Origin: Elusimicrobiota bacterium
GTDB taxonomy: Bacteria; Elusimicrobiota; Elusimicrobia; UBA1565
Assembly (NCBI GenBank): GCA_043827405.1
Contig: JBDRPD010000039.1
Coordinates: 32,001 to 96,000 of the forward strand
Length of the DNA: 64,000 bases
Direction of reading: 5' to 3'
Shown here: piece by piece, positions 8,024 through 59,613 of the stretch
How positions within the stretch are numbered: position 1 is the stretch's first letter
Layout of the letters: each line of letters begins with the position of its first letter
The notes under the pieces: generated by a model
Seen by the model: the letters and a program-made list of their open reading frames with translations, nothing else
Database searches by the model: none
Told to the model about the DNA's origin: nothing
Position numbers and translations under genes: made by a program

Positions 8024-9286
8024 ATGCGAAAGCTCATCGCGCCTCTGTGTTCGGCGCTCATTGTTCTGTGTTCTCCCGGTTCCGCCGCCTGGTCGGCGGT
8101 CGCCGTCAAAACCGTCCCTGTCGGTCCCGTCGCCGCCGGTATCGGCGCCGCCGGCGCGGCCGTCCGCGCCGGTCTGCGGATGCCGGTCAGCGGCAGCTTG
8201 AATCTCGGCAGTACGCTGCCGGCCTTCCGTGCCGCTGCGCTTTTCAAGCCGCATCAAAGCCCGCAGGTCGGCGTCCTTCCTTCCGTCACCGTCCATAGCG
8301 TCAAGGATATCAAGACGCACGGGATTAAGGTTAAGACGGAAAAACGACGCAAGATCAAGAGTGTTATCTCCGGTTTAAAAGAAACCGCCCGCGTCCTGCG
8401 GGCCAAGGGCGGCAAGTCCAAGGCCGCCGGCGTTCTCAGCGCTTCGTTTGACGGCGAGTCCTACCTCGTCCCCTACGACGATAAGGGATTCGTCGATCTC
8501 GAACAGGAAAATCCCGAAGCCACGCCGGGCTTCAAGCCGACCGGCAGGCACGGCAACAACGGCAGCAGGAAGGCCGTCAAGAAATTAGCCAAGGACGTCG
8601 AGAAGCTGAAAGAATACCAGCAGCGCCTGTACGCGAGCGGTGAGCGGTCCGTGCTCCTGGTCTTCCAGGCCATGGACACCGGCGGCAAGGACGGCGCCAT
8701 CCGCTACGTGCTCGGCCCGCTCAACCCGCAGGGCGTGAAGGTCGCCAGCTTCAAGCAGCCGACCGCCGGGGAGAAGCGGCACAACTATCTGTGGCGCATC
8801 AGAAAAGCCCTGCCCGCGAAGGGCATGCTCGGCGTCTTCAACCGCTCGCATTACGAGGACATCCTGGTGCCGACCGTGGATGAGACCATGCCGGCGGCGG
8901 AAGTCGAGAAGCGCTACGCCGAGATACGCGATTTTGAAAAAGCCCTGGCCGACAGCGGGGTCGTCATCCTGAAGTTCTTCCTGAACATCTCCAAGGACGA
9001 GCAGAAGCGGCGCCTGCAGGCGCGGCTCGACGATCCGGACAAGCGCTGGAAGTTCAGCCCGAGCGATCTGACCAGCCGGGCGAAGTGGGGCCGCTACCTC
9101 GCAACCTACGGAAAAATTCTCGCCCGCACCAGTACGCCGTGGGCGCCCTGGTACGTCATCCCCGCCAACAATAAGTGGTTTCGCAACTTTCTGATCGGAC
9201 GCATCATCCGCCGGGCGCTCGACGCCATGGGCCTGCGCTATCCGGCGCCGCCGGCGGGGCTCGACCAGGTCGTTATCCCCGACTGA
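8024..9286 (+). CDS. ppk2: Polyphosphate kinase 2 family (class III-like) fused to a signal peptide and about 150-aa leader
   Basis: LLVFQAMDTGGKDG (Walker A), FNRSHYED, KFFLNISKDEQ, KRWKFS, APWYVIPANNKW. Confidence 0.92.
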   Translation: MRKLIAPLCSALIVLCSPGSAAWSAVAVKTVPVGPVAAGIGAAGAAVRAGLRMPVSGSLNLGSTLPAFRAAALFKPHQSPQVGVLPSVTVHSVKDIKTHGIKVKTEKRRKIKSVISGLKETARVLRAKGGKSKAAGVLSASFDGESYLVPYDDKGFVDLEQENPEATPGFKPTGRHGNNGSRKAVKKLAKDVEKLKEYQQRLYASGERSVLLVFQAMDTGGKDGAIRYVLGPLNPQGVKVASFKQPTAGEKRHNYLWRIRKALPAKGMLGVFNRSHYEDILVPTVDETMPAAEVEKRYAEIRDFEKALADSGVVILKFFLNISKDEQKRRLQARLDDPDKRWKFSPSDLTSRAKWGRYLATYGKILARTSTPWAPWYVIPANNKWFRNFLIGRIIRRALDAMGLRYPAPPAGLDQVVIPD

Positions 9287-10643
9287 CGCCGATGGCCGGC
9301 GGATGCTCCAGCAGCGCCGCCACGCGGCTGCGCCACATGAAGAACAGCGTTACCGCCACCACCCCGAGGCCGGTGAGCAGCCCGATCCAGAGCCCCGGCG
9401 GGCCCATCTCGGCGTGGAAGGCCAGCCAGTAGCCCAGCGGCAGGCCGAGGAGCAGGTGGCTGCAGACGGTGGCGTAGAGCGGCAGCCGCGTCTCGCCCAG
9501 GCCGCGCAGCGAGCCGGTCATGATCACCTGCGTCCCGTCGAAGATCTGGAAGACCGCCGCGATGCGCAGCAGCGGCGCGCCGACGGCGATGACCTCCGGG
9601 TCGGCGGTGAACAGGCGGATCAGCTGCTCCGGGATCAGCATATAGATCACGCCGGCGCCGGCCATGAAGGTGACGCCCAGCATGAGCGCGGTGTCTCCGG
9701 CCTGGACCGCGGCATGCGGGTCCTGGCGGCCCAGCCCTTGCCCCACCTGGACGGCGGCGGCGAGCGAGATGCCCAGCGGGATCATGAAGGTCAGGGCGGC
9801 GAAGTTCATGGTAATCTGATGGCCGGCGGTCGGCACCGGGCCGAAGCGCGCCATCAGCATGGTGACCATGGCGAAAAAGCTGACTTCGGCCATGAGGTGC
9901 AGACCGGCCGGCAGGCCGAGCTGGATGAGCTCGAGGAAGGTCCCGAGACTCCAGCTGCGAAACATATAGTCCGCGCGCAGCGCTTGGCGCAGCACCGCGG
10001 CCAGTCCGACGAGGAGCATGACGCATGCTGAGATGACGCTGGCGATCGCGCAGCCGCGCACGCCCATGGCGGGAAATCCCAGATGCCCGAAGACCAGGCA
10101 GTAATTGATGAAGACGTTGACCGTATTGCCGACGGCGATGGCGAACAGCAGCGGGCGGGTGATATTCATCGACTGCAGATAATGCCGGCAGCAGACGAAC
10201 AGCAGCGCCGGCAGGGCCAGCCAGCGGAAAATGGCGAGGTACTCCAGCGCGACGTCGGCGACGGTTTTATCGATGCCGACGAGCCAGTACAGGGGCTCCA
10301 CCGCGCCGAGCGCGGCGATGATGGGCGCTGAGATCAGCGCCGCCAGGACCATGGCATGGATGATGATCTCCGCGCACAGCCCGGTCTTGCCGGCGCCGAA
10401 AGCGCGCGACGCCAGAGTGTCGATCCCGAGCAGGAAGCCCAGGCCGAACAGGAAGACCATATGGAACGTCGCGCTCGCCACCCCGGCGCCGGCCAGGGCC
10501 GCGGCGCTCACGCGGCCGAGAAACAGCGTATCGACCAGGCCGTAGAGCATCATGCCGGCCTGGATGACCGCGATGGGTGCCGCCAACGACAGGACGGATT
10601 TGGTGACCGCCCGCGTCGGCAGCCTGAAGGTGCCGAGAATCAC
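9273..10643 (-). CDS. MATE family efflux transporter
   Basis: VDTLFLGRV, FGHLGFPAMGVRGCAIA, FQIFDGTQV..GSLRGLG; 12 TM; GTG start 8 nt after TAGAAT. Confidence 0.92.
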   Translation of the reverse strand: MILGTFRLPTRAVTKSVLSLAAPIAVIQAGMMLYGLVDTLFLGRVSAAALAGAGVASATFHMVFLFGLGFLLGIDTLASRAFGAGKTGLCAEIIIHAMVLAALISAPIIAALGAVEPLYWLVGIDKTVADVALEYLAIFRWLALPALLFVCCRHYLQSMNITRPLLFAIAVGNTVNVFINYCLVFGHLGFPAMGVRGCAIASVISACVMLLVGLAAVLRQALRADYMFRSWSLGTFLELIQLGLPAGLHLMAEVSFFAMVTMLMARFGPVPTAGHQITMNFAALTFMIPLGISLAAAVQVGQGLGRQDPHAAVQAGDTALMLGVTFMAGAGVIYMLIPEQLIRLFTADPEVIAVGAPLLRIAAVFQIFDGTQVIMTGSLRGLGETRLPLYATVCSHLLLGLPLGYWLAFHAEMGPPGLWIGLLTGLGVVAVTLFFMWRSRVAALLEHPPAIGVSRG

Positions 10644-10682
10644 GAGCAGTCATTCTAGCACATGCGCCGGGACGGGCCGCGG

Positions 10683-10898
10683 CTAGGGGTGGATGCCGTT
10701 GCGCTCCTTGTACCGGCGGATGCCTTCGCGGATACGGCTCTTGAGGGCATGCGGGGCGAGGCGTCCGCAGTCGCCGAGTCCCTCTACCGGCGCGCATAGG
10801 GAATAGCACCAAGGCGACAGGTTTTTGGTCAGCGGGCAGCCGAGATAGGTGTATTTCGGCAGGGGTTTCTTGCGGCGTTTCTTCACTATATTTGTCAT
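10683..10898 (-). CDS. Small basic Cys-containing hypothetical protein (71 aa)
   Basis: AGGAG SD before MTNIVKKRRKK; GCP..WC..LC..CGR..PH pattern. Confidence 0.65.
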   Translation of the reverse strand: MTNIVKKRRKKPLPKYTYLGCPLTKNLSPWCYSLCAPVEGLGDCGRLAPHALKSRIREGIRRYKERNGIHP

Positions 10899-10972
10899 GG
10901 CTCCTCTCCTGGGATTAGGATAGCCAAGCGAAATCAACGGATTCTCAACGGCGGATAAAATCCGGCTAAACT

Positions 10973-12752: not shown

Positions 12753-14443
12753 CGGCGGGCGAGAAAGCGGGCCGTCTCATGCAGCGCGATGACGGCGGCC
12801 AGCAGCGTTAGGTAGATGGCGTGAAACATCACGCCCGTGAGCCGGCGCTGCATCGAGGGCCGCCGCGCCCGGTCTTCCTCGGATGAGCGCTGCAGGGACG
12901 CGGCGACTTCCGGGTAGGGCGAGAAAATCATGTAGGGCTCGCGGTGCATGCTGTTGATGATGCCGATGGATATCGGCAGCGCGTACTGAAACAGGCCGAT
13001 GGGGTGCTGCGCCATGCCGGCCGCCTTCCAGCGCGCGTTGAGGCGCCGGGTGAAGTCTCCCAGGTGGAGCACGCTGCCGTTTTCGGAAATCGCCTGCAGG
13101 TCGAGGTCGCTGTCGGGTCCGGCGGCGCCGTTGACGAAGCTGCCCATGAGCAAGGCGCCGACGATGCGTTGGCCGCGCGGCAGCTCGCGGTTCATCTCCA
13201 GAATGGTGTCGCGTACGGCGGCGTCGAAGATGCCGAGGACCCGCTCCTGGTCATGCTTCTGGTAGTCCAGCAGCCGCTGGCGGGCGTCGTCGCCGGCCAG
13301 GCTGTCGAAGTAGGCGGGAAGCTCCTCGACGCTTAACGATGAGGCATGGAGCAGTCCCTTTTCCAGCAGCTTGCGAAACTGCGTGGCGCGGCGGTTGGGG
13401 TTGTAGGCCTGCGCCCGGGCGACCAGCCGCGCGAAGGCTTCGGTGCTCTCCCGGTCCTCCTGGAAATTGTTGTTGAAAAGCGCCCAGGCGTCGCCGACCA
13501 CGATACGGTTGGAGGTTACGCGCAGGCCGAAGGGGCCGAAGCGGCCGGTCGAACCCATGGTCAAATGCTGCAGGAAGAAGCGCAGGCGGAGATGGGGCTT
13601 GACCGCGAAATTCTTGCCCGGGTTCGCGTCGAACGGCTTCTTGTACTTGCGCCAGACGCTCACCGTGCGCGAAGTCACCCGCCAGTGAAAGGAGTTCAGG
13701 TATAGTCCCAGGTAGCCGAGCTTGTCCTTGATCCAGCGCCGCCCGGTGCGCTGCGGTATGTCGACTTCGCCGCGGTGCCGGGGATCGGGCTGCGGCTTCC
13801 AGTCGAAGCGCTCGACCTCCGGCTTGTCATCGGATTTCCTGCCGCCGATCAGCTCCTTGCCGAAGGAAAGCGCCGAGGACTTCCAGCCTTCCGGGGTGCC
13901 GAACCATTTATGGCCGCTGCGCCCGGCATGGACCGGGGAGGACGGCCGTTCGGCCCGCGCATTATCCCAGAGGTGCGCGGTCGTCTTGGTCAGCGACAGC
14001 TTGCGGAGAAAGCGCAGCGCGCCGGTTTTTTTCGCCGGCTCTTCCTGGGCCTCCCGGGCCTGCAGCTGCGAGCCGGGGAGCGCGGTCTTGACCGCAACGG
14101 CCTTGCCGCCGGTCTGGAGTTCCTGCTTTTGCCCCGTAATGTTCACGGTTTGAGGAGAGGTCTTCGCCTTATGAGAGATTTGTTCCGTCTGGGTGTTGAA
14201 GACGGGAAGGCTCGGCAGGACCGAGCCGAGAGACTGGGAATTTACGGTGCGGACCGAATTCGTCTTTAGCGCCGCTCCGCCACCTATGCCGCCGACAGCC
14301 GCGGCGCCGCCGACGGAAGCGGATACCTTTACCGGAGCGATGCGGACGGCGGCGTGAGCGGCCGGGGTTAATACGGGAATACAGGCAAGCAGGAAGGAGA
14401 GGGTGGAGCACGAGGTCCGTCTTAACAGACCACCTAGCTTCAT
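12746..14443 (-). CDS. Signal peptide and leader fused to an unknown central domain and a C-terminal Pol-beta-type nucleotidyltransferase domain
   Basis: LLMGSFVNGAAGPDSDLDLQA fits the hGS-x(n)-DhD NTase motif; C-terminal hydrophobic helix. Confidence 0.75.
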   Translation of the reverse strand: MKLGGLLRRTSCSTLSFLLACIPVLTPAAHAAVRIAPVKVSASVGGAAAVGGIGGGAALKTNSVRTVNSQSLGSVLPSLPVFNTQTEQISHKAKTSPQTVNITGQKQELQTGGKAVAVKTALPGSQLQAREAQEEPAKKTGALRFLRKLSLTKTTAHLWDNARAERPSSPVHAGRSGHKWFGTPEGWKSSALSFGKELIGGRKSDDKPEVERFDWKPQPDPRHRGEVDIPQRTGRRWIKDKLGYLGLYLNSFHWRVTSRTVSVWRKYKKPFDANPGKNFAVKPHLRLRFFLQHLTMGSTGRFGPFGLRVTSNRIVVGDAWALFNNNFQEDRESTEAFARLVARAQAYNPNRRATQFRKLLEKGLLHASSLSVEELPAYFDSLAGDDARQRLLDYQKHDQERVLGIFDAAVRDTILEMNRELPRGQRIVGALLMGSFVNGAAGPDSDLDLQAISENGSVLHLGDFTRRLNARWKAAGMAQHPIGLFQYALPISIGIINSMHREPYMIFSPYPEVAASLQRSSEEDRARRPSMQRRLTGVMFHAIYLTLLAAVIALHETARFLARRK

Positions 14444-14449
14444 ATCCTG

Positions 14450-25398: not shown

Positions 25399-28277
25399 GC
25401 TTTCGGTGCGGCCTTTTTCGAATCCTTCTCGCGCTCGCCGTTCTCCCATCCCTCGGGGTTGATCTTCTTGAGCCAGCGGGGGGCCAGCCATTCGAGGAGC
25501 GAGGTCAGGCTGATCCCGGTTGCGATGATGGCGATCGCCGCCTGGATCGGGACGATGTCGATGAGGATACCGATGAGCAGCGCGCCCAGCGCCATCAGGC
25601 CGACGTCGACCATGGTGAAAGCGGCGCTTACCTTGCCCACCATGTGGTTGGGAATCTGCTTGCGCCGTACCGGCGCCATGGCGATGCCCAGCGGGGTGGC
25701 GAGCATCGAGAGCATGAACTCAAAGAGCAGCAGCACCGCCATGGAGCCCGCAAACAGCGGGATCGACATGCCGGCGGCCGGGGCCGCGAAGAAAGTCGGG
25801 ATGAGCATGGCCCAGAAGGTCAGGCCGCTGATCGCGGCGGCGCGATAGAGCGCCCCGTGGCCCCACTTCTTGATGCGCTGGGCGCCCTTGGGACCGCTCG
25901 CCCAGCGTGAGCCGAGGTAGCGGCCGACCGCGCCCGCCGTGAGCATGAGCCCCATAATGCCTACCGGCGTGGTGAGCATGGAGCCGATGACCGGGACCGC
26001 GGCCAGCGCCGCCGTCGGCTTGATCACGTCGATGATGTAGTTGGGGATCACGACGAACATCAAGGCGTCCGCGATGAAGAGCTCGATGGCGGTGATCGCC
26101 ACCAGCAGCGAGAGCGTGTCCGAGCGCAGGATTACCGAGACGCCCTGGGTCGCTTCGATCTTGTCGAAGAAGCGCGCCATCTTCTCGCGCAGGTTCCAGC
26201 CCTTCTCCTTGAAAGGCACCTCACGCTCCTGCGCTTCTTTCAGGACCTCGGCATGCTCGGGGCTTACTTCATGCTGGCGTGACTTGAGCTTGGAGATCAG
26301 CCAGCGAACGCCGATATAGGGCAGCTTGAGGACGGTCCACAGCGGCATAAGGATATTGAGCGGGTTCTTCGACGGCTTCTGTTTGACGCTGGGATCGAAG
26401 TAGCGCGGGTCGCGCACCATCAGGATGAAGATCGGGATCGAGAGCAGCAGCATCAGGGCGTAGCCGGCATAAGCCGCGGCGTAGCCGCCCGGGCTGCCGA
26501 AGGCCACGACCAGCTGGCTGACGACCCAGGCCGCGGCGGCCGGGATCACCAGGCCGCTGACGGCCGAGACCTTGGTCCCGAAGGCGGTGCCCTCGCGGAC
26601 CACGTTCTCGTCGCGGCCGAGGAAGCTGTCGCGGGAGGCGGTGTCGGAGTTCGTCATGAGGCTCTGGAACATCGGGTTGAGGGCGACGATGCCGATCAGC
26701 ACCGCGAAAGTCATATAGCCGCTGAAGAAGAGCACCGGAATCAGTCCCATCAGGAGCGCCCGTGCGACCGAGGTCCAGATGAACATGGTCTTGAAATCCG
26801 TCTTGTCGATGGCCGGTCCGATGGGGAGGAAGCTCGAGGCGCTGTAGGCGCCGAAATGGACATTGCGGATCACGCCCATCATGGTCTTGCTGCCGGTGAG
26901 GCCGTAGACCAGGTAGGGCTGGGCCGAGATGTGCATGTAGATGCCGAACATGATGAAGACCGTATGGCCGAGGACGAGCCCCTTGAGCGAGCGGGGGATC
27001 TCGATCTTCCCGGGCAGGAAGGGCATGCCCTCTTCGATGCTCTTGTCGTAGAGGGGTTCCATGACTTCGCTGATCACGTAGCCGAGCCGGGTTCCGAAAT
27101 CGCGGTTGCCAACGCTGGGGCCGTCGGCGAGCAGTTCCTTCATCTTCGCCGCGGGTTCGCCGTCGCGGCCTTCCAGGGAGGCGTAAAGTCCTGCCATGAA
27201 GCGCTGATCACGGGCCCGCATCTTCTTGCGCAGGCCGAACTTGAAGCGGTCGCCCAAAGACGGCGCCGGCATGATGAGCTGCTTGCCCGGCCGCCAGGCC
27301 GCTCCGGTCAGGTAGCCCTGGACATAGTCCGCATCCTGCAGGTTCTCGCGCAGGGCGGGATGGTTCGTATCCATCCCGGCGAGCGATTCGGCGAGCGCGG
27401 TGTTGATCTGTTCGTCGGAGGCCTGTTCGGTCCGGGCGAGGAACTGCTGGCCGGTCGCTTCGTCCCGGTGCAGCTCGGCGATGCGGTAGGCCAGGCCCTT
27501 GATGAACTTCGCCCGCTCTCTGCCCGCGGGCAGCTCGAGCGCGGTTCCCTGCTGATAGACGCTCGCCGCTACATAGCCCGCTTTGAAATAGCCTTCATGA
27601 AGGTCGAAAAGGAGGTGTTCCTGCTCTTTGGCCGCTTTGGGGGTCTGGGGTCTTGCCGGCTCGGTCTTGGCGCGGCCCTGGACCGCTGAACTGCGGCGGA
27701 GCAGGCGGTTTTTTAGTGAGGCGAAAACGCCGCTTTTGACGGAGACGGGCGCTGCGTCCTCCGACTTCGCCGCTTCAACCGTGAAGTCGGCGTCCTTTTT
27801 GATCTCGCTGCTGGAGAGGTTCGCGATGCCGGCGGTGAGCTTGCCTGACGTTTTTGCGATCGCGGAAAGCCGCGCTTTGAGCGCAGGGGCGGCGCTCTTC
27901 TTCGCCTCTGCAGTAGCGGCGGCGGCCCCGCTGCCGGTGTCGGTCTTGATCGACTGGACGGTGCCGGCGGCGCCGACCTGCAGCTGCTTGGTTCCGACTC
28001 CCTGGGAAATCGGGAGCGCAACGGACGGCAGGACGGAGATGAGCGGCGCCTTGCCGACGCTGTTTAGGGAAATGCCGGAGAAGTCTCCGCCCGGTATGCG
28101 GGAGACGCCGCCCGCGGTGCCGGCGGCATTGGATCCGGGGGCGACGGCCTTGACCGGCGCCTTGAAGACCATGGCGGCGGCTTCATAGGCTCCCGTGCCG
28201 GGAGCGGCGATAACAAGGGATGTCGCGAGAATGGCGGCGATTGCTTGGCGGCGCGGGGAAGTCGTTCTCTTATTCAT
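25395..28277 (-). CDS. Signal peptide, leader and soluble domain fused to an MFS-like transporter
   Basis: About 430 aa soluble N-terminal part, then two bundles of TM helices; IPNHMVGKVSA resembles DHA3/MFS_3 C-terminal loops. Confidence 0.72.
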   Translation of the reverse strand: MNKRTTSPRRQAIAAILATSLVIAAPGTGAYEAAAMVFKAPVKAVAPGSNAAGTAGGVSRIPGGDFSGISLNSVGKAPLISVLPSVALPISQGVGTKQLQVGAAGTVQSIKTDTGSGAAAATAEAKKSAAPALKARLSAIAKTSGKLTAGIANLSSSEIKKDADFTVEAAKSEDAAPVSVKSGVFASLKNRLLRRSSAVQGRAKTEPARPQTPKAAKEQEHLLFDLHEGYFKAGYVAASVYQQGTALELPAGRERAKFIKGLAYRIAELHRDEATGQQFLARTEQASDEQINTALAESLAGMDTNHPALRENLQDADYVQGYLTGAAWRPGKQLIMPAPSLGDRFKFGLRKKMRARDQRFMAGLYASLEGRDGEPAAKMKELLADGPSVGNRDFGTRLGYVISEVMEPLYDKSIEEGMPFLPGKIEIPRSLKGLVLGHTVFIMFGIYMHISAQPYLVYGLTGSKTMMGVIRNVHFGAYSASSFLPIGPAIDKTDFKTMFIWTSVARALLMGLIPVLFFSGYMTFAVLIGIVALNPMFQSLMTNSDTASRDSFLGRDENVVREGTAFGTKVSAVSGLVIPAAAAWVVSQLVVAFGSPGGYAAAYAGYALMLLLSIPIFILMVRDPRYFDPSVKQKPSKNPLNILMPLWTVLKLPYIGVRWLISKLKSRQHEVSPEHAEVLKEAQEREVPFKEKGWNLREKMARFFDKIEATQGVSVILRSDTLSLLVAITAIELFIADALMFVVIPNYIIDVIKPTAALAAVPVIGSMLTTPVGIMGLMLTAGAVGRYLGSRWASGPKGAQRIKKWGHGALYRAAAISGLTFWAMLIPTFFAAPAAGMSIPLFAGSMAVLLLFEFMLSMLATPLGIAMAPVRRKQIPNHMVGKVSAAFTMVDVGLMALGALLIGILIDIVPIQAAIAIIATGISLTSLLEWLAPRWLKKINPEGWENGEREKDSKKAAPKA

Positions 28278-37530: not shown

Positions 37531-38822
37531 GGGGGCTGCGCTTCGCACCGCTGCTGCTGGTTCTCTCCGTCTCGCTGGCGCAGGCGGCGGCGATGAAGGT
37601 TCCCAAGCGGCCCAGGGAATTTCCGCCCACCGGGCCAGCGCCGCAGGAGACCAAGCGCAACCCGCTCGACTTCATTATCCGCAACCTCCGAATGACGACG
37701 CCGGTCGGGCCGCTGTTGTTCATCCCTCTCGTCGACACCAACAAGGACATCGGCTTTCGTTCCGGAATCATGCCGATATGGGCGTTTCGCGACCGGCGCG
37801 GTGACGGCATCGCGGCCGTTCTCGCGCCGTCGGTGCGCTACAACCGCTTTTTGAAGACGGAGTATACCGGGCGGGCGTATTTTTTCCCGAACGAACGGGA
37901 CCTGGTCGTTGTTCGCGGCTCCTACTCCTCGGTCGTCAACCGGGAGATCTTCCTGCGCTATTTTACGCGGGAGTTTCTCGGCACCAATTTCCGGCTGAAC
38001 ACGGAGCTCCACCTCTTTCGCGACGGTAAGTTCTCCTTCTACGGTTTCGGTCCGGATTCGGTCGATGGGGATCAGGCCAACTTCTCCAAGTATAAAATCG
38101 GCGAGGAGGTGACGGTGGGCATCCCGACCGCCAAGCACTGGTTCCTCGAGCTCAGCCATTCCAACTTCCAGTACCAGCTCGGCGCCGGACCGATCACCAA
38201 CCTGCGGCCGCTCAGCGAGGTTTTTCCGAATCAGGCGATTTTGGGTTGGAAGCGCCTGGTCAGCCACGGGGCCGCGATCACCTACGATTCCACGGATCAT
38301 CCGTCCTTGCCGACGCGCGGCGGGCTGATTACTTTGTCGGCGCGTACCGCCCAGACCGCGCTGGGCAGCGACTATACCTGCCAGACATACGCCTCCCAGT
38401 TAAAGTACTACCAGAATATGGTGGATGGGAAGTATGTTACGGTTGCGAATCTGTACTTCGAGCAGCAGCGGGGGGATATCCTGCCGTTCTATGCCCAGAC
38501 CGTCGTCGGTGAGTCCACCGGGCTGCGGCTGGAAGGGGACGGCCGCTTCGTGGACCGGGGCCGCATGGTGTTCAATATCGAGGAGCGCATCCGCGTCGCG
38601 CGCTCGCCGCTGCTCAAGTTCTTCAGCGAGGTGGAGATCAGCCCCTTCCTCGACGTGGGGACCGTTTTCCCGCAGCCCGGCAAGCTGCGCTTTGATAACC
38701 TGCAGCCCGGCCCGGGCATCGCGGCGCGGGTTCTGCTGCGGCCTCAGGTGGTGATCACGGCCGACGTCGCCTGGCGGGGAAGCAAGAAGAACTTCATCCT
38801 GAAGGTGGACTATCCGTTTTAA
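37527..38822 (+). CDS. Omp85/BamA-TamA family outer-membrane protein without obvious POTRA domains
   Basis: Signal peptide, YDSTDHPSLPTRG, GLRLEGDGRF, PFLDVG, C-terminal YPF. Confidence 0.8.
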   Translation: MRGLRFAPLLLVLSVSLAQAAAMKVPKRPREFPPTGPAPQETKRNPLDFIIRNLRMTTPVGPLLFIPLVDTNKDIGFRSGIMPIWAFRDRRGDGIAAVLAPSVRYNRFLKTEYTGRAYFFPNERDLVVVRGSYSSVVNREIFLRYFTREFLGTNFRLNTELHLFRDGKFSFYGFGPDSVDGDQANFSKYKIGEEVTVGIPTAKHWFLELSHSNFQYQLGAGPITNLRPLSEVFPNQAILGWKRLVSHGAAITYDSTDHPSLPTRGGLITLSARTAQTALGSDYTCQTYASQLKYYQNMVDGKYVTVANLYFEQQRGDILPFYAQTVVGESTGLRLEGDGRFVDRGRMVFNIEERIRVARSPLLKFFSEVEISPFLDVGTVFPQPGKLRFDNLQPGPGIAARVLLRPQVVITADVAWRGSKKNFILKVDYPF

Positions 38823-39711
38823 AGCCGTGCCGCAGCTCGTCGTCGGCCCGTTCCTGGCGGTCGCGGGCGGCGAGCGTCCAGACGTTGTAAAACGATACCT
38901 CCGCCCAGAAGTACAGTTCGGGACGGCGGGCCGCCAGGGCGGCCGCGATAACGAGCAGCCGGCTGTTGGCGCCCAGCAGATTCCACCAGCGGATTACCGG
39001 CAGATTTAAGCCGCGGTACGCCGCCGCCGTCTTCTCATCGAGCGTGCCGTCGGGGCGGCGTGCCAGCAGTTCCTCACCGAGGCGCACATGGGAAGCGGCG
39101 AGCCGGCGCTGGCGCAGGGTATAGTCCCGGTGGCTCCAGGCCAGGAAGCGCGCCGCCCGGCCGCCCTCTTCGCTTGCGCCGGACTCCAGGTCGGATTTCG
39201 GGATGCGCCGCTGGTCCACGTATTCGGTGTACTCCGTCCGGTAGTAGTCAAAAAGACTCGCCTGTATGGAATGAGAGATGCCCGCCAGGGCGGCCAGCGT
39301 GAAGATGAGAACGGCCGAAGCATCCGGGTTGAGGCTCAGGTACTTGGCGGCGAGAGCGAGGTAGGTGGCGATAAATACGCAGTAGTCGGCGACGCCGTCG
39401 AGGATGCGGCCATGCAGGCTCGCGCTCTGCGTCATGCGCGCCAGCTGGCCGTCGGAGGCGTCGAAGACGCCGCTGAGCACCAGCAGGCCGAGGCCGGTCC
39501 ACATCCAGCTGTCCCAGTACAGCAGTCCGGCGCCGGCCACCCCCGTCGCCAGGCTGGCCGTCGTCAGCTGGTTGGGCGTCAGGCCCAGGCGCTTGCCGGC
39601 CAGCGCGAACAGCGCTCCCGCCGGCCGGTAGAAATAGATGTCCAGCACGCCTTCGCTCTCATAGGACTTGTAGGCGTTGTGCGCCTCGAGGGCGTCGCGC
39701 AGGGCTGTCAT
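38794..39711 (-). CDS. CDP-alcohol phosphatidyltransferase family protein
   Basis: TPNQLT and D-ASDGQLAR..S..GRILDGVAD signature. Confidence 0.92.
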   Translation of the reverse strand: MTALRDALEAHNAYKSYESEGVLDIYFYRPAGALFALAGKRLGLTPNQLTTASLATGVAGAGLLYWDSWMWTGLGLLVLSGVFDASDGQLARMTQSASLHGRILDGVADYCVFIATYLALAAKYLSLNPDASAVLIFTLAALAGISHSIQASLFDYYRTEYTEYVDQRRIPKSDLESGASEEGGRAARFLAWSHRDYTLRQRRLAASHVRLGEELLARRPDGTLDEKTAAAYRGLNLPVIRWWNLLGANSRLLVIAAALAARRPELYFWAEVSFYNVWTLAARDRQERADDELRHGFKTDSPPSG

Positions 39712-40676
39712 GGCCGGGGCGTTATGCTCCGGCGTTCATCGTAGTAGAGGGCCGTGCCGATGAGCGCCCATAGGATTTCCCGGGCATGGCGAATCAGGCC
39801 GAAGGCGAAGCCGGCGGTTTTCGGCAGCCCCAGCGCCGTGAAGATCGCGGTCTTGCTTATCTCCTGGGTCCCGGCTTTGGCCGGGACCATGAAGAATACT
39901 CCATCGACGGATGCCGAGAGCAGTTCGATGATCAGGGCCGTCTCCACTGAAACGGGCAGCCCCAGAAAACGCATGATCAAATAGGCTTCGAAGGCCCCCC
40001 ATAGGTAGGCCAGCGTGAAGCACAGGACGGAAAGAAGAAACAAGCCGGGGTGGCGCCGCAGGAAGACGCGCGCGTCCTGGTCCACCATCTTGACAACCGA
40101 CCGCCAGCCTTGGGGTTCCGGCTTCTTATGGCCGGTGTCCTTGCCCGAACGCCAGGCCCGGAGCTCGAGCGCGATGAGTAGTATGATCAGGACTCCCAGC
40201 AGCACCATTCCGGCATTGCGGCCGCCGCCGAATGCTTGCAGGGACAAGCGGCCGCTGGCGATAAGCCAGAGGCTGCCCGCGGAGACCAGCGCGAAGGCGA
40301 GGACCTGGGTAAACTTTGAGACCACCAAAGAAGAAAGCCGGGAGGCGATAGGATGATCCCGGCCGATCATGGAGGCTTTGGCCATCTCGCCCGCCACCAG
40401 GGCGGAGGGAATGAGGTAGTGGACTCCGTCGCCGGCGATGCGCAGCTTGAGCAGGCGCCAAAAAGAGGGCACCATGCTCCGGTGCTCCGGCAAAAAGGCC
40501 GCCGCCCAGCCCGCCGCGTTGAGAATATGGGCGACGATCTCCTGGGCGAAGATGAGAATGAAGCCGATGCCGACGCTGCGCAGGGCCCAGGCGACCGACG
40601 GCCACGGCATCTTCCAGGCCAATAGGCCGAATGCCAAGACGCCGACGGCGAGCAGAATCTTTTCTACGCGCTTCAT
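39708..40676 (-). CDS. Lysylphosphatidylglycerol synthase TM / flippase-like membrane protein
   Basis: IPSALVAGEMAK, VPAKAGTQE motifs; polytopic. Confidence 0.8.
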   Translation of the reverse strand: MKRVEKILLAVGVLAFGLLAWKMPWPSVAWALRSVGIGFILIFAQEIVAHILNAAGWAAAFLPEHRSMVPSFWRLLKLRIAGDGVHYLIPSALVAGEMAKASMIGRDHPIASRLSSLVVSKFTQVLAFALVSAGSLWLIASGRLSLQAFGGGRNAGMVLLGVLIILLIALELRAWRSGKDTGHKKPEPQGWRSVVKMVDQDARVFLRRHPGLFLLSVLCFTLAYLWGAFEAYLIMRFLGLPVSVETALIIELLSASVDGVFFMVPAKAGTQEISKTAIFTALGLPKTAGFAFGLIRHAREILWALIGTALYYDERRSITPRP

Positions 40677-40677
40677 G

Positions 40678-41811
40678 TCAGGCGATGGCGCGCTCGTAGA
40701 TCCGGTACTTCTTGTACAGCTTGCCTTCCATGGCCTGCATGCCGCGATTCATTTTCTCGTTGTCTTCCAGAATCCAGCCGAGCTCTCCGTCCCAGCCCTT
40801 GCGCCGGGCCGTCAGCCAGGCTTCCCGGTAGAGCAGGACTTCCAGCCCCCGATTGCGGAAGGCTTTCCTGACGCCTAAAGTGATCAGGCGGACGCGGTCG
40901 ATCTTGCGGTAGTAGTACAGAAATTTCAGCGTCCCCCAAAGGCCCAGCTTGCCGTTGAGGCGGCGCAGGGCTTGGTTGACGTCCGGCAGCAGGATGCTGA
41001 AAGCGACGGTTTCTCCGTCGACATCGGCGAAGTGAATCGCTTCAGGGTCGACGATTGGCTTGAGTTTTTCCGCCATCAGATCCAGCTCCGCCGGCGTCAT
41101 CGGCGTAAAGCCCCAGTTTTTTTCCCAGGCCTCGTTGTAGATGTCGCGGACTATCTGCAGCTCTTCCTCCCAGCGCGCCATGCGCATCGAGCGGATGCGG
41201 ACGCCTTCCTTTTTCGCCACCCGCTCCGCGAGATAGCGAATGCGCTTGGGGATGGGATCCGTGGAAATGAGGAGATAGGAATAGAGATCCTTGATCTTGG
41301 TTAGGCCGGCGGACTCCAGGAGCGCGGAGTAATAAGGAGGGTTGTAGGGCATCATGATAGCGGGGGGATCGTCGAAGCCTTCGATCAGCAGCCCGCACTC
41401 CTCGTTAAACGAGGGGCTGGCGGGGCCGCGCATGACGCTCATGCCCTTGTCTTTGAGCCAGGTGCGGGCGGCGTCGAGCAGCGCTTGCGCGGTTTTCTCA
41501 TCGTCGACGCATTCGAAGAAGCCGAAGTAGCCGCACTTCTCATGGTGGAAATCGTTATAGGCGCGGTCGACCACGGCCGCGCAGCGTCCGACGATTCGGC
41601 CGTCCGCCACCGCCAGGAACAGCTCGCGTTCCGCGTGCTGCCAAAACGGATTGGCCTCCGTCAGCAGGTCGCGGACTTCGGTTTTAAGGGGGGGCACCCA
41701 TGGCGGGCTGTCGCGGTAGATTTCCCAAGGCAGGTCGATAAAGCCGGTGAGCTGCTGCGCATTCCGTACGGCCTCAACGGATGCTTCCGCCGTCCGGCGC
41801 TCAGGCGGCAA
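40678..41811 (-). CDS. GNAT-fold acyltransferase, putative bacterial ceramide synthase (bCerS-like)
   Basis: FIDLPWEIY..WVPPL, GYFGFFEC, MRGP, GLLIEGF, MPYNPPYY, NWGFTP, WILEDN; directly downstream of Spt. Confidence 0.75.
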   Translation of the reverse strand: MPPERRTAEASVEAVRNAQQLTGFIDLPWEIYRDSPPWVPPLKTEVRDLLTEANPFWQHAERELFLAVADGRIVGRCAAVVDRAYNDFHHEKCGYFGFFECVDDEKTAQALLDAARTWLKDKGMSVMRGPASPSFNEECGLLIEGFDDPPAIMMPYNPPYYSALLESAGLTKIKDLYSYLLISTDPIPKRIRYLAERVAKKEGVRIRSMRMARWEEELQIVRDIYNEAWEKNWGFTPMTPAELDLMAEKLKPIVDPEAIHFADVDGETVAFSILLPDVNQALRRLNGKLGLWGTLKFLYYYRKIDRVRLITLGVRKAFRNRGLEVLLYREAWLTARRKGWDGELGWILEDNEKMNRGMQAMEGKLYKKYRIYERAIA

Positions 41812-43021
41812 TCGAGACGCCGTCGCGTTCGGGGCGGGGAAGGAGCCCGGCTTTCTTGCCGCAGTGCTCGAAGAGCTCGAGCGCGCGATCGATATGCTCG
41901 GCGGTATGGGTGGCCATCAGCGTGTTCCGGATGAGGGAATGCCCGGGAAGCACGGCCGGGGTGATGATGGGATTGTTGAATATCCCGGCGTCGAACGCCA
42001 GCCGCCAGAAGCGGAATACCTCTTCATCGTCCCCGATTTCGATGGGGACGATAGGGGTCTCGGTGACGCCGGTGGAGAGGCCCAAAGACTGCAGGCCGGT
42101 ACGCAGGCGCTGCGCATTATCCCACAGCCGCGCTCTCCGTTCCGGCTCGTCCTGGATGAAATCGATGGCCCGGGAGATCGCCGCCACGCAGGCGGGCGGG
42201 AGGGCGGCCGAGAACATCATGGATCGGGCGTTGAGCTGGATGTAGTGGATGACGTCCTTGTCGCCGGCCACGAAACCGCCGACGGAGCCGAGCGCTTTGG
42301 AGCAGGTGCCCACGATCAGGTCGACCTCGTTGTTCTCCAGGCCGAAATGCTCGCAGGTTCCCCGGCCGTTAAGGCCCAGGACGCCGGTGGAGTGGGCGTC
42401 GTCGAGCACGATGCGAGCGCCGTGCCTGCGGGCTGCCGCGACGATTCCCGGGAGATCGGCGATGTCGCCTTCCATGCTGAAGACCCCGTCCACGGCGATG
42501 AGCTTGCCCCGGTCCGCGGGGATGCCGCGCAAAATCTGCTCCAGGTGGTCCATGTCGTTGTGCCGGTAGCGCAGGGTCTCGCCCCAGGAAAGCCGGCCGC
42601 CGTCGATGATGGAAGCGTGATCCCCTTTGTCTACGATGACCACGTCCTTGCGTCCGGCCAGACAAGAGAGGACTCCGAGGTTCGTCTGGTAGCCGGTGGA
42701 AAAGATCAGGGCCGCCTCGCGGCGCTTGAATTTGGCGAGCTTCAGCTCCGTCTCATGATGGAGCTCCATCGTGCCGTTGAGGAAGCGCGAGCCGCCGCAG
42801 CCGGTACCCCAGTGCGCGACGGCGTCCTGGGCCGCCCGTTTCATCTCGGGATCACCGGCCAGGCCCAGGTAGTTGTTGGAGCCCAGCATGATGAGCTCGC
42901 GGTCGCCGACTTTAATCTGCGGTCCTTGGGCGGAGGCGAGAGGGATGAAGTAGGGAAAGATGTCGCGCTCCATAAGGCGCTTCGCGGTGTTAAAGCTGTA
43001 GCACTTGTCGAATATATCCAT
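41801..43021 (-). CDS. spt: Alpha-oxoamine synthase, putative serine palmitoyltransferase
   Basis: FPYF, GSNNYLGL, GSRFLNGT, HASIIDG, DGVFSMEGD, DDAH, GTCSK (PLP Lys); gene context. Confidence 0.75.
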   Translation of the reverse strand: MDIFDKCYSFNTAKRLMERDIFPYFIPLASAQGPQIKVGDRELIMLGSNNYLGLAGDPEMKRAAQDAVAHWGTGCGGSRFLNGTMELHHETELKLAKFKRREAALIFSTGYQTNLGVLSCLAGRKDVVIVDKGDHASIIDGGRLSWGETLRYRHNDMDHLEQILRGIPADRGKLIAVDGVFSMEGDIADLPGIVAAARRHGARIVLDDAHSTGVLGLNGRGTCEHFGLENNEVDLIVGTCSKALGSVGGFVAGDKDVIHYIQLNARSMMFSAALPPACVAAISRAIDFIQDEPERRARLWDNAQRLRTGLQSLGLSTGVTETPIVPIEIGDDEEVFRFWRLAFDAGIFNNPIITPAVLPGHSLIRNTLMATHTAEHIDRALELFEHCGKKAGLLPRPERDGVSIAA

Positions 43022-46574: not shown

Positions 46575-48335
46575 CTAGGAAGAGCCGGTCGGGGCTTTCG
46601 CCTCGGCCGGCTCTGCTTTGCCGCTGTCTTTGTAGCGCTTGACCGCGCGCAGGGTCAGAAAGTACAGCGGGACCGCCAAGGCCGCGCCGAGGATCAGGCC
46701 GCCGAGCATGGCCGTGCCGAAAACCTGCAGCCCCACGTCCAGAAGCGCATTGATCCCCGCGATCAGCCCTTCATTCGCCGCGCCGAGCAGGCCGGCCAGG
46801 GCTTCGGAGGCCGCCGGGGCCGCGGGGTTGAACCAGCTGCCGATGGTGTATTCCAGCCAGTAGAAGGGCGCCAGCGTCAGCGGGTTGGTGATCCAGATCA
46901 TGCTCATCGCGGCCGCGGTGCTCGCGCGCAGCGGCTTGCTGAGCGCCAGGATCATCAGCCACTGCAGGCCCACGGTCGGCGTCATGGCGATGAGGATTCC
47001 CAGCGCCACCCCGCGCGCGATGGTCCGCGCGGAAGTTTCATGCAGCAGCGCGTTCTTGAGCGCGTTGCGCCAGGTGTCGCGGACGCGCGTCCAGCTCCAG
47101 ATGCGGGCGCGCTTGGGGGTCTTGAGAGTCTTCTTGCCGGCCTCGAAGCCGACTTCAGCCAGGATTTCCAGCAGGGCTTTGCGGACCCGGCGGTCGAATC
47201 CGGCGGCCTCCTGCGACATGATCGACAGGGCTTTCTCGATCGACATCCCCTCGCGGTAGGGGCGGTTCTCCATCAAGGCGTCGAAGACGTCGGCGACGGC
47301 TACGATGCGCCCCCATTTGCTTATCTGCCGTCCGCGCTTGCCGAACGGATAGCCTGAGCCGTCCAGGCGCTCGTGATGCTCGAGCGCGACTCTCGCCGCC
47401 AGCTTGCGCAAATCCTTCGGCAGGTGGGAGAGCTCGGACAGCATCTGGGAACCGATCAGCGAATGACGCTTGATGGTCGCGAACTCCTCGTCGTTGAGCT
47501 TGCCGGGCTTGTTGATCGTCTCCGTGATCACCGGTTCCGTCTTGCCGAAATCGTGGTAGGTCGCGGCCCAGGCCAGGCGCTCGGCGAACAGCGGCGTGAC
47601 GCCCATCTTGAGCGCTATCAGCCCGCTCAGCAGGCCGACGCGCAGGGAGTGCCGGCCGGTGCCGGCGTCCCGGGTTTCAATGCGCTTGATCATCGCGTTC
47701 TTGAGCTGGATGCGGCGCCGGTCATGGTCATCGCGAGCATCCAGGCCGCGGTTTGCCAGGAGATTCCAGGAGCGCGATAGCACGCTCTCATAGCGCTCGT
47801 CCTTGATATTGTCGCGGCCGTAGATCGAGGGCTCGTACCAGGAATGGGCCAAGGCGGCTAAAGGGCTCGCGGCGTTTTGTGCGCCGTCAAAAAAGGCGTT
47901 GAGCTCCGCGGATTCCGGCAGCGCGCCGTTCTTCTTGCTAAGGCGAGTCTCGGCGGTCTGGCGGACTGAGCGTCCCTGTCCCGCCGCCCCGGGTACAGGG
48001 GATGCGGTGACGGGCTTGACCTTCGCCGCGCTGTTTCGGGCATGAGCGGGAAGTACCTGCGGCGTTTCGATAACTTGGGTAGGGGCAAAGCGCGGTTTAA
48101 GATCGGGGCTCTGGTTGGGAAGCGGCAGGTTCTCGAGGACGGGGAGAAGCAAGGTGCTGCCGAAGGTCAGCGCCTTCAGCGTGCTGTGCTTGTGCGCGCC
48201 GGAGGCCGCGCCGGCCGCCGCCGCGGCGCCGCCGCTTACGGGCGCCTGCACAACCGGCAATTTCCCGATATTCGCGAAGGCCGGGACGTTGAGCGCGAAG
48301 ATCAGCGTCAGCGCTACGATCCGCGATTTCATCAT
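46575..48335 (-). CDS. Signal peptide and leader fused to an HD-GYP phosphodiesterase domain and a C-terminal DUF2062-like membrane domain
   Basis: HSLRV, HDFGK, HHERLDGSGYP, VADVFDAL..RPY; IARGVALG, WITNPLT. Confidence 0.88.
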   Translation of the reverse strand: MMKSRIVALTLIFALNVPAFANIGKLPVVQAPVSGGAAAAAGAASGAHKHSTLKALTFGSTLLLPVLENLPLPNQSPDLKPRFAPTQVIETPQVLPAHARNSAAKVKPVTASPVPGAAGQGRSVRQTAETRLSKKNGALPESAELNAFFDGAQNAASPLAALAHSWYEPSIYGRDNIKDERYESVLSRSWNLLANRGLDARDDHDRRRIQLKNAMIKRIETRDAGTGRHSLRVGLLSGLIALKMGVTPLFAERLAWAATYHDFGKTEPVITETINKPGKLNDEEFATIKRHSLIGSQMLSELSHLPKDLRKLAARVALEHHERLDGSGYPFGKRGRQISKWGRIVAVADVFDALMENRPYREGMSIEKALSIMSQEAAGFDRRVRKALLEILAEVGFEAGKKTLKTPKRARIWSWTRVRDTWRNALKNALLHETSARTIARGVALGILIAMTPTVGLQWLMILALSKPLRASTAAAMSMIWITNPLTLAPFYWLEYTIGSWFNPAAPAASEALAGLLGAANEGLIAGINALLDVGLQVFGTAMLGGLILGAALAVPLYFLTLRAVKRYKDSGKAEPAEAKAPTGSS

Positions 48336-58624: not shown

Positions 58625-58684
58625 CTCGCTGGGGCGCCATCCTTGGGACGCAGCATGCGGATCGCCCTCTCCAGTTTGCCCGCA

Positions 58685-58752
58685 TAGGTCTTTAGTCCCA
58701 GAAAACGGTGGGACTTTTTCACCTTTCGCTTTCCCCCAATAGCCCACATACT
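58685..58752 (+). promoter_or_regulatory. Tandem GGNC-N4-GNCC boxes plus -10 (shared promoter, copy 5)
   Basis: GGTC-TTTA-GTCC at 58687, GGAC-TTTT-TCAC at 58711, CATACT at 58747, ATG at 58759. Confidence 0.68.
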
Positions 58753-58758
58753 GGGAGC

Positions 58759-59613
58759 ATGAGCAAGCGGGGCTTCATCCTGACCTTCTGCCTAACCCTC
58801 AGCCTGGTCGGCTGCCGGGAAAAGGGGGACAAAGCCGAGAGCTGCGGCGACTCGTCCCCGCGCGCCTATGCCGCCAATAGCAAGGAGGCATCCGCCTCCG
58901 ACACCTCCCAAGCGCAGAGCCGGTTGGGAAGCGCCGGGCAATCCGCCGTCCAGGCCCGCTCTCTCGGTAGCGGCGCCGCGGCGGACGCGGAGTCGCTCCG
59001 CCACAATGCTTCCAGGACCTTTGACGGTGCCGGCAGCCTGTCCGGCCTAACGCGCAACTCGGCCGTCTACGCCGGAGGGACCTCCAGCTATCCGCCGCGG
59101 CCGGAGCTGAAGATGCAGCAGCCCCGCAAGTTCCGGAGCTCGGCCCAGGAGCCGCCGTCCCCGCAGCTCGGCGCCGCCGGCGCCGGGAGCCTCTCGATCC
59201 GCAACGATCTGGGAGAGAAAATTACCGTCGCCTACAAGAACGCCGCCGGCCGCATCAACGCGGGCGCGCTGCAGCAGATCAGCCGCATCTTCCGCGATGA
59301 AAGGAACGGGAAGTACCGCGCCGTCCCGGTCGGCCTGGTGGACACCCTGGCCAAGATCCAGCAGCGGTTCGGAAACAAGACCATCCATCTCGTCAGCGGC
59401 TACCGCAGCCCGGAGACCAACAGCAAGCTGCGCCAGAGCAGCAAGAAGGTCGCCAAGAACAGCCTGCACATGCAGGGTATCGCCGCCGACATCCAGATCC
59501 CCGGGGTCTCGAGCTACGCCGTCGCCAAGTACGCCAAATCCCTCAAGGCCGGCGGGGTGGGGACGTACTCGACCTTCGTGCACGTCGACATCGGCGGCGT
59601 ACGCTACTGGTAG
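58759..59613 (+). CDS. Lipoprotein with YcbK/DUF882 peptidase M15 domain
   Basis: Lipobox LVGC; SGYRSPETN, VAKNSLHMQGIAAD, GGVGTY, FVHVDIG.VRYW. Confidence 0.9.
   Translation: MSKRGFILTFCLTLSLVGCREKGDKAESCGDSSPRAYAANSKEASASDTSQAQSRLGSAGQSAVQARSLGSGAAADAESLRHNASRTFDGAGSLSGLTRNSAVYAGGTSSYPPRPELKMQQPRKFRSSAQEPPSPQLGAAGAGSLSIRNDLGEKITVAYKNAAGRINAGALQQISRIFRDERNGKYRAVPVGLVDTLAKIQQRFGNKTIHLVSGYRSPETNSKLRQSSKKVAKNSLHMQGIAADIQIPGVSSYAVAKYAKSLKAGGVGTYSTFVHVDIGGVRYW

Follow-up and report, generated by a model that had tools for sequence, protein, structure and literature searches.

Two lines of work come closest to the system described here. For the Kil and Tad machines of Myxococcus xanthus and Bdellovibrio, effector delivery has been hypothesised, and the accessible parts of these papers do not mention Elusimicrobiota (PMC8460266, PMC12428579). 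In Omnitrophota a predatory reading of giant proteins has been proposed (10.1101/2023.11.21.568195; 10.64898/2026.06.07.730766), and Tad, giant open reading frames and ATP/ADP translocases are taken as host-dependence traits (PMC10066038). Our subject is a stretch of 64,000 nucleotides (the window) from an Elusimicrobiota bacterium of the UBA1565 lineage, C39:32001-96000 of a genome, G000, of 4.33 Mb in 108 contigs, 63% GC and 98% complete. Four window genes, for a PPK2, a nucleotidyltransferase-like protein, an MFS transporter and an HD-GYP phosphodiesterase, begin with the same N-terminal leader. PPK2, Pol-β nucleotidyltransferases and HD-GYP phosphodiesterases use cytoplasmic nucleotide substrates and usually lack signal peptides. 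A sequence-only reading had proposed that the leader is a portable tag, routing unrelated cargo through the periplasm into another cell or a special compartment. The leader is real and lineage-wide, and the properties of its cargo suggest a route of this kind.

The motifs described for the four leaders lie at the places given for them in the translations (Table 1). Our own gene calls yielded 3,496 proteins for the genome. A seed of 22 regular-expression hits led to an iterated hidden Markov model (HMM) of residues 1-100 and 62 members, 58 at 18 bits or more and four by eye. Six more were added by eye to make 68; one is truncated at a contig start, a few are borderline, and many counts below are of 67. 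A separate model of residues 1-200 was trained on 50 leader proteins, with the four window proteins and eight other members excluded. The held-out window proteins score 61.5, 50.7, 30.7 and 51.0 bits (PPK2, nucleotidyltransferase-like, MFS and HD-GYP, respectively) and the other eight 27.3-54.3, against 20.8 for the best of 3,434 non-members. The result is significant against shuffles also, with none of 250 per protein equalling the real score; hold-out and shuffles rule out an artefact of composition. When the signal peptide is left out (residues 25-110), 10-32 bits remain for the four proteins, and no non-member exceeds 9.7. By itself the FDG region (residues 110-200) is weak, giving 10.5, 5.0 and 7.2 bits for PPK2, nucleotidyltransferase-like protein and HD-GYP and no score for the MFS.

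The leader extends over some 150-190 residues, comprising a Sec-type signal, an acid-free Gly/Ala/Ser segment, an LP(S/T) element and a basic helix ending FDG. By our own heuristic an h-region is present in 67/67, a net-positive n-region in 66/67 and a small-x-small cleavage site in 62/67, 44 of these being strict A-x-A, a count that is partly circular because alanine is preferred at position −1 in the scoring. A Tat-like motif is found in none of the 68 leader proteins and a lipobox-like pattern in one. Membrane cargo tends to carry an extended signal with the pattern PG..Y.A.A (20 of 31, as opposed to 5 of 36 with soluble cargo, p 3e-5), which only six of 1,092 non-member signal proteins display, one being the SecA-like giant considered below. 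Mature residues 1-60 contain 2.0% Asp plus Glu compared to 11.8% in the comparison set, and the first 40 contain neither in 45/67 leader proteins but only 11/562 others. The acid-free segment reads GAAGAA in this genus and is Pro/Ala/Leu-rich in others. There follow the element, as L-x3-LP(S/T), then a disordered linker, a basic stretch and a short helix with hydrophobic-x2-hydrophobic-F-D-G at its end. An aromatic-Asp motif was correctly noted in three window leaders, with only DADF in the MFS; 42 members have this core, with variants such as LTG and FSG elsewhere. FD[GN] occurs at residues 105-215 in 12 of 40 non-seed members and 22 of 879 other signal-bearing proteins. The (A/V)PV motif, present in all four window leaders as claimed, is loose in the family: no column there reaches 50% in a 59-sequence alignment.

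Mis-called starts would be a trivial source of such extensions, and are countered by three observations. A −10-like hexamer, TAnnnT, ends 6-8 nucleotides upstream of the start in all four window genes. A distance of 4-9 nucleotides is seen for 30 of the 67 leader genes, where a control window gives 8, and for 553 of all 3,496 genes; the position suggests leaderless transcripts starting at these ATGs. Several members have equal lengths in public gene calls. Orthologues share the extension: all 28 untruncated MFS orthologues (of 29 rows) have an open frame of at least 166 residues before the domain.

In a 200-genome sample of the phylum the leader profile was found in 8 of 11 genomes of the same order and, marginally, in 2 of 189 others; misses here are weak evidence because at most 17 candidates were scored per genome. 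The leader-MFS clade is represented in 15/15 genomes of family f1, 31/67 of f2, 1/3 of f3 and three others of the class, and in 0/89 of f4 and 0/23 of f5. Leaders occur also in G021, G232, G233, G281 and G020; they were not found in G018 and G038 and are not convincing in G282, G163 and G241. The f5 genome G318 has none in 460 kb, compared to six HMM hits in 471 kb of G000, whose members are in the training set. Among PPK2 homologues of other phyla 0/74 carry the leader. The best named match to the window enzyme, an Elusimicrobia record, shares a 100/100 clade with the orthologues from the same order. The leader is missing from two of the 18 Elusimicrobiota PPK2 rows, L006 and L010, and L004 has only the FDG end in frame. 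All three leader-profile hits with a taxon are Elusimicrobiota, and an Atlas search with the leader gave best hits under 0.9, which are leads only.

That the leader is a portable tag on unrelated cargo is borne out by the inventory. The 62 members fall into 49 cargo clusters, so that at least that number applies to the set of about 68; 42 have a Pfam hit (some below cut-off) and 20 have none. Soluble cargo includes adenylate kinase (ADK), PPK2, glycogen synthase, two amylases, two Clp-type and one Lon-type AAA proteins, RNB, endonuclease I, EEP, PLD, Fic, two nucleotidyltransferase-like proteins, HD-GYP, two other HD proteins and ATP-grasp. There are proteases (S8, S41, DegP, M3, M28, M48, M50 and CAAX) and transporters or channels (MFS, an ABC exporter, SDF and MscS), and the six later additions include MoxR and a uridine kinase-cytidine deaminase-PQ-loop fusion. 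In the window, Pfam assigns PPK2 (E 6e-70), MFS_1 (E 2e-8) and HD_5, the last with a C-terminal DUF2062 membrane domain that had been overlooked. The nucleotidyltransferase-like protein matches NTP_transf_2 at E 0.002, below the Pfam cut-off standard, although its GS..DxD motif is present; it has one leader-bearing paralogue in the genome, and the MFS is one of eight with a leader. By consensus patterns, the catalytic motifs of ADK, PPK2, GlgA, HD-GYP, Clp, MoxR and EndA are intact. Leader-free paralogues, the normal ppk2 among them, exist in G000 for ADK (2), PPK2, GlgA, Clp, RNase R, HD-GYP (3), ABC, SDF, MscS, M3, M50 and DegP; none was found there for Lon, Fic, EEP, S41, the nucleotidyltransferases or the window MFS.

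The cargo had been called mostly cytoplasm-acting. This holds for many members, but EndA, S8, S41 and DegP are ordinary exported hydrolases. Could every member simply be secreted by Sec to the periplasm or cell surface, with the leader as a common pro-region or handle for chaperones, and with enzymes that scavenge the nucleotides, polyphosphate and glucans released by lysed cells? Some of the cargo is indeed normally extracytoplasmic, the leader amylases adjoin a sugar-binding ABC importer, and secreted passengers are commonly low in cysteine. We consider this highly unlikely since it leaves unexplained ATP-driven Clp, Lon and MoxR, glycogen synthase and ATP-grasp as cargo, and the ABC, MFS, SDF and MscS proteins, whose leader side is cytoplasmic (below).

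The second property is a near-total loss of cysteine, a signature independent of selection because the members were chosen on their N-termini. After position 45 the leader cargo contains 14 Cys in 61,931 residues and 59 of 68 proteins have none; the level is 0.69% in 794 other signal-bearing proteins and 1.18% in 1,321 other proteins, a drop of some 30- to 50-fold. Paralogues differ accordingly: ADK has 0 with the leader and 6 and 4 without, GlgA 1 and 9, amylase 0 and 10, 3 and 1. The eight leader MFS proteins have none in the cargo, the 16 other MFS-type proteins 1-9. In 57 database relatives there are 6 Cys in 24,402 residues, and the PPK2 domain is free of Cys in 18/18 Elusimicrobiota, compared to 148 Cys in 74 orthologues of other phyla. 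DsbA-type proteins are present in the genome; DsbB was looked for and not found. Such loss argues for a route that crosses an oxidising space unfolded.

Export might nevertheless end in the producer itself, the cargo being kept in a second cytoplasm-like space (an enlarged periplasm, a vesicle or a compartment shared with a partner) with the transporters inverted. The signal, cysteine loss, charge bias and duplicate housekeeping set would be accounted for equally well, and two TLC/NTT-family nucleotide-transporter-like genes (C39:18535-19803 and C50:211902-213089, partial Pfam matches over cut-off) could supply nucleotides. However, the periplasm lacks the RNA, DNA, c-di-GMP or protein targets on which RNase II, endonuclease I, HD-GYP, nucleotidyltransferases and Fic depend, and periplasmic residents can retain paired cysteines, as the 0.69% of other signal-bearing proteins indicates. 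Atribacter offers a precedent in having N-terminal extensions and an extra membrane but, in the part of that paper available, the extensions are on sole essential copies such as FtsZ and LpxC, not on extra copies (PMC7736352). We judge retention in a compartment of the producer unlikely, though a reading of some weight.

The third property concerns topology. Around the first predicted cargo helix, 28 proteins together have 73 Lys plus Arg before and 19 after (the HD-GYP helix among them is probably soluble), and in one 12-helix MFS the leader side has 39 compared to 2. By this bias the leader lies on the cytoplasmic face despite the preceding Sec signal. In addition the cargo helices are less hydrophobic than those of 392 comparison proteins (p 3e-5 to 1e-8). 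A simple solution would be that the hydrophobic N-terminus is a tether, with the cargo held in the producer cytoplasm or inner membrane in normal orientation and gathered at a membrane site. No new machine is needed, the segment before the first helix obeys the positive-inside rule, and ATP, ADP-glucose and polyphosphate would be at hand for the cargo that depends on them. Yet in a reducing cytoplasm the 30- to 50-fold cysteine loss has no cause. The basic n-region and uncharged segment after the h-region set N-in/C-out, and a re-entrant second helix to reverse this is ruled out, as between the signal and residue 190 none of 67 leaders has one under 2.5 kcal/mol on an approximate Hessa scale. 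Cleavage-type sites are conserved, and the EndA, S8, S41, DegP and M28 hydrolases would be harmful or misplaced in the cell's own cytoplasm. Tethering is decidedly unlikely.

A co-occurring apparatus was the remaining expectation, and the leader is accompanied by a cluster of Tad pilus, membrane-protein and SecA-like genes. The Tad locus (C83:127-136 kb) encodes a Flp pilin (identified by reading the sequence, with no Pfam hit), TadE, RcpC/CpaB, secretin, ATPase, TadB and TadC; in all, G000 has three secretins and 17 strong PilB/PilT-type ATPase matches. No match in G000 was obtained for the SctV/FlhA export gate (PF00771) or the VipB/TssC sheath (PF05943) of the type VI secretion system, and the type III secretion system (T3SS), the flagellar gate and the type VI system were discarded as delivery routes. 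A screen for other cysteine-free proteins revealed the TPYQ family, with 14 members in G000, each having a basic N-terminus, one anchor helix, a disordered stalk and a C-terminal hydrophobic bundle. Its Atlas matches are to Elusimicrobiota clusters only. No Pfam match exceeds the cut-off and the model, a hydrophobic helical bundle, matches generic bundles only; the idea of a T3SS-type translocator has neither family nor fold support. The FDG likeness of TPYQ and cluster proteins is by eye only, since a short matrix leaves them in the background (ranks 27-3,265 of 3,428), and FDG is weak as a stand-alone genome-wide signal.

The cluster runs from the Tad locus through signalling genes, TadE-like pseudopilins, an FtsH-like ATPase, X, two to five TPYQ genes, Y, Z and W to the SecA-like giant, which in this setting has 2,500-3,100 residues, ending in G000 and G007 with a giant leader protein. 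The order of pseudopilins, FtsH-like ATPase, membrane proteins and giant is the same in G007, G013 and G017. In G017 and G336 the Tad locus lies next to the cluster; in G000 the whole is split over contigs. The SecA-like giant is conserved across the order at about 2,400-3,400 residues, with open frames of 4,300-6,100 residues in f8, and carries collinear helicase motifs. Its label rests on a fold search: with a model of the C-terminal ATPase domain (pLDDT 70), SecA structures rank highest (E 7e-6, TM by query 0.35), with UvrB next at 1e-4. The likeness by sequence is weak (hhalign E 0.004 and 0.007 with probability below 10%; Pfam SecA_DEAD at E 0.04 in one of four), and PDB sequence searches with two giants and the ATPase profile, the 5,435-residue leader protein not being among the queries, gave nothing significant. 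Mostly single-copy, the giant occurs in f1 (13/15), f2 (59/67), f3 (1/3), f8 (3/5), f34 and f35 and in no genome of f4, f5, f6, f7, f9 or f10. Of 250 class genomes 44 have the leader-MFS clade and the giant, six the MFS only (all at most 87% complete), 34 the giant only and 166 neither.

Taken with cysteine loss and the topological conflict of the transporters, this signal-bearing ATPase suggests that the proposed passage through the periplasm is correct. What lies beyond it? An ATPase behind a signal, and cargo in need of ATP, RNA, c-di-GMP and ADP-glucose, point to a final site that is a cytoplasm-like space reached after export. The conflict would be resolved at a stroke by delivery into another cell with insertion from the inside. 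A bacterial target is the more likely one, as the cargo is of bacterial types (HD-GYP, MscS, SDF, GlgA), ankyrin, LRR and F-box families being absent from the top hits listed; another bacterium on which the producer feeds appears the most likely destination. Sec export, unfolded periplasmic transit and delivery into the cytoplasm and inner membrane of another bacterium, with destination and machinery inferred from these features, is a reading we regard as evenly balanced between right and wrong. That it constitutes an undescribed delivery system, with a bipartite address, a cysteine-free kit of about 70 proteins including polytopic transporters, and a Tad contact machine with an exported SecA-like motor, making the target cell a digesting and exporting organelle, we advance more tentatively, as somewhat less than an even prospect. 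All explanations other than these and the three rivals have, together, a very small probability.

The leader would then be a bipartite address for a two-step route. Judging by sequence features, the Sec-type signal would carry the protein over the producer inner membrane and signal peptidase I would cut it; for membrane cargo the longer signal subtype and milder helices could prevent arrest there. The oxidising periplasm would be crossed unfolded, the cysteines having been purged so that no disulfide blocks passage. Clustering and co-occurrence suggest that the acid-free segment and helix-FDG are read by a contact machine, possibly the Tad pilus with accessory membrane proteins and the signal-bearing SecA-like ATPase, which would thread the cargo into the other cell. 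As far as cargo chemistry is a guide, soluble proteins would act in the target cytoplasm as nucleases, RNase II, Clp/Lon and peptidases, in ATP regeneration (ADK, PPK2), c-di-GMP breakdown and glucan turnover, whilst transporters and channels would enter the membrane from the inside, oriented as usual, and let the products out.

Several points weigh against delivery into another bacterium. Leader genes are scattered and in general do not adjoin the machine cluster. G020 (88% complete) has leader hits and no giant match, the f8 genomes G163 and G241 have giants and no full leader match, and the co-occurrence may reflect shared ancestry since kin are not independent. Tad is ruled out as a marker of the leader, as RcpC is nearly class-wide (222/251 genomes, including 89/89 of the small-genome family f4; we note 0/14 in f6 and 0/9 in f9). 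In family f5, which yielded no leader, 19 of 23 genomes have TPYQ proteins. With TPYQ reaching f5 and Tad nearly the whole class, we infer that a Tad-TPYQ core is older and that W, the giant and the leader are a later addition. PPK2 of L006 (G014) and L010 (G004), in the same family, have no leader yet also no Cys; as they lie inside the Elusimicrobiota clade, secondary leader loss is possible. The leader Lon has no canonical Walker A match, and the consensus motifs of Fic and RNB are incompletely matched. When the comparison is confined to the MFS (8 with the leader, 16 without), the difference in hydrophobicity is modest (on three measures, p 0.04, 0.05 and 0.26), and the partial circularity of the small-x-small count also belongs here. 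We know of no precedent for 12-helix transporters sent whole through SecY and the periplasm. Finally, Lineage IV, which corresponds to UBA1565, has been portrayed as a versatile heterotroph, without predation in the accessible text of one source (10.1101/765248) or in the other (PMC9476967).

Feature coordinates are listed in Table 1. The M15/DUF882 lipoprotein at 58759-59613 had been drawn into the comparison on account of RTFDGA; the motif is there, but the protein scores −1.5 bits on the leader model and its FDG ranks 162 of 3,428 on an FDG-anchored matrix, so family membership is rejected. Like an amidase_2 lipoprotein (C82:11268-12422) it has a Ser/Ala-rich stalk ending FDGA; together with C32:12925, C32:14796 and similar secreted proteins, the two may represent a looser second class. 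Directly upstream of the PPK2 gene (6331-7929, plus strand) is a membrane-anchored SLT lytic transglycosylase with no Cys after residue 45, its low-complexity stalk ending FYDG, rank 9 on the FDG matrix. Elsewhere in the window are Pel-type exopolysaccharide genes (3-4176, plus strand; DUF3492 glycosyltransferase, PelG exporter) and a minus-strand cluster (38794-43021) of aminotransferase class I/II, GNAT protein, LPG-synthase-type membrane protein and CDP-alcohol phosphotransferase, which we presume may serve serine-palmitoyltransferase-like lipid synthesis. Elsewhere in G000, two paralogous cysteine-free leader giants (C22:34432-50739, 5,435 residues; C99:25740-37823, 4,027 residues) are 38% identical over 3,375 residues and have no Pfam domain. 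Besides the PilB/PilT-type ATPases, about 30 TPR-kinase receptor-like proteins and about 29 PorV-like barrel proteins form expansions; a PorV-like NPA pattern is seen in 27 proteins. A second, divergent SecY (C66:14697-15962), 33% identical to the housekeeping copy, was dismissed as a dedicated channel, being present in only 2 of 111 class genomes.

Table 1. Coordinates of the features discussed (window positions unless a contig is named).
Feature	Position	Strand	Description
Leader-bearing PPK2, 420 aa	8024..9286	+	DTGGKDG and FNRSHYED intact; 0 Cys after residue 45
PPK2 leader	8024..8518	+	Sec-type signal ~residues 1-22, VPV31, acid-free Gly/Ala segment, LGSTLP61, basic helix, FDG142 (8447-8455)
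TAnnnT (−10-like) hexamer of PPK2 gene	8011..8016	+	Ends 7 nt before start
Leader-bearing nucleotidyltransferase-like protein, 565 aa	12746..14443	-	GS..DxD at residue 434
Nucleotidyltransferase-like protein leader	13904..14443	-	Signal 1-31, APV36, GGAAAVGG, LGSVLPS72, basic helix, WDN159 (13961-13969)
Leader-bearing MFS transporter, 960 aa	25395..28277	-	MFS domain 439-890; cargo without Cys
MFS leader	27708..28277	-	Signal of the extended PG..Y.A.A subtype usual with membrane cargo; APV40, ISVLPS80; FDG degenerate (DADF162)
Leader-bearing HD-GYP phosphodiesterase	46575..48335	-	HDFGK and HHERLDGSGYP intact; C-terminal DUF2062 membrane domain; no Cys
HD-GYP leader	47826..48335	-	Signal 1-21, APV31, GGAAAAAGAA, FGSTL58, basic segment, FDG149 (47883-47891)
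DUF882/peptidase M15 lipoprotein	58759..59613	+	RTFDGA (F88) at 59020-59028; not a leader-family member
Cluster	G000 C22:32945-73127, C1:70214-78205		Also in G007, G013, G017, G281, G336 and f5 genomes
SecA-like giant, 3,018 aa, signal-bearing	G000 C22:51959-61015	-	Split divergent SecA-like ATPase, ~1,000-aa helical insertion

Known bacterial delivery systems mostly convey toxins or host-manipulating effectors. The payload here looks like a working second proteome, with ATP regeneration, proteolysis, RNA and DNA turnover, glucan metabolism and natively oriented membrane transporters. If delivery is confirmed, a widespread uncultured order would gain a lifestyle and a sequence rule that predicts the substrates. 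There would be candidate answers to what Tad-type predation machines transport and to why, in Omnitrophota giants, enzymes of the cytoplasm follow signal peptides and are accompanied by a divergent SecA. Bacteria would also have a counterpart of targeting by signal plus transit peptide, and the system might be used to put membrane proteins into other cells. Should a rival hold, the compartment or topology would still be unusual.

In a literature search of openly accessible papers and the main texts of bioRxiv preprints we found no description of the leader. The complete UBA1565 genome note does not mention it (PMC9476967), and the accessible text of the main Elusimicrobia genomics paper has no occurrence of 'signal peptide', 'secret', 'predat' or 'pili' (10.1101/765248).

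The bipartite signals of complex plastids and the Plasmodium PEXEL likewise place an acid-poor, small-residue-rich second address after a cleavable signal, and soluble and membrane cargo cross further membranes unfolded; being eukaryotic and ER-based with unrelated machinery, they can serve as an analogy only. Accessory Sec (SecA2/SecY2) and the extended signals of autotransporters are similar in that extended signals steer a substrate class and, for the former, in a second SecA-like ATPase. SecA2 is cytoplasmic, however, whereas here the SecA-like domain belongs to a signal-bearing protein of 3,018 residues and a second SecY is a rarity. Substrates of the Legionella type IVb secretion system carry a C-terminal signal; here it is N-terminal and of the cleavable type. 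Its transmembrane effectors are also bacterial membrane proteins destined for another cell's membrane but, according to the accessible text, take a two-step route with an inner-membrane intermediate into a eukaryotic host, unlike the bacterial-type cargo here (PMC11602083). Atribacter laminatus shares N-terminal extensions on normally cytoplasmic proteins and unusual signal peptides. Those extensions are of 10-73 residues on essential sole copies, with no single shared motif described in the portion available (PMC7736352), compared to some 150-190 residues on extra copies here.

The predatory machines are nearer. Kil/Tad of M. xanthus and the Tad of Bdellovibrio have a like core of short secretin, CpaB, ATPase, TadB/C, TadE-like pseudopilins and unknown accessory genes; Kil works with a needle-less T3SS, not found here, and the accessible text gives no known substrate signal (PMC8460266, PMC12428579). 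The accessible Omnitrophota texts describe no shared leader, and that of one (10.64898/2026.06.07.730766) contains neither 'cysteine' nor 'Elusimicrob'. The adhesin and CAZyme Pfam domains fused in those giants were not found in the SecA-like giant here, which is below 10,000 residues. Nevertheless, there as here a large signal-bearing protein with a divergent SecA-like ATPase follows a Tad or type II secretion-like locus with rcpC (10.1101/2023.11.21.568195; 10.64898/2026.06.07.730766), and signal-bearing proteins contain cytoplasmic-type enzyme domains, for example starch synthase (10.64898/2026.06.07.730766). The difference, as far as those texts show, is one of packaging: in Omnitrophota the cargo is fused in polyproteins of 10,000-147,000 residues, whilst in this lineage it is spread over about 68 separate genes beside a SecA-like protein of 2,400-3,400 residues.

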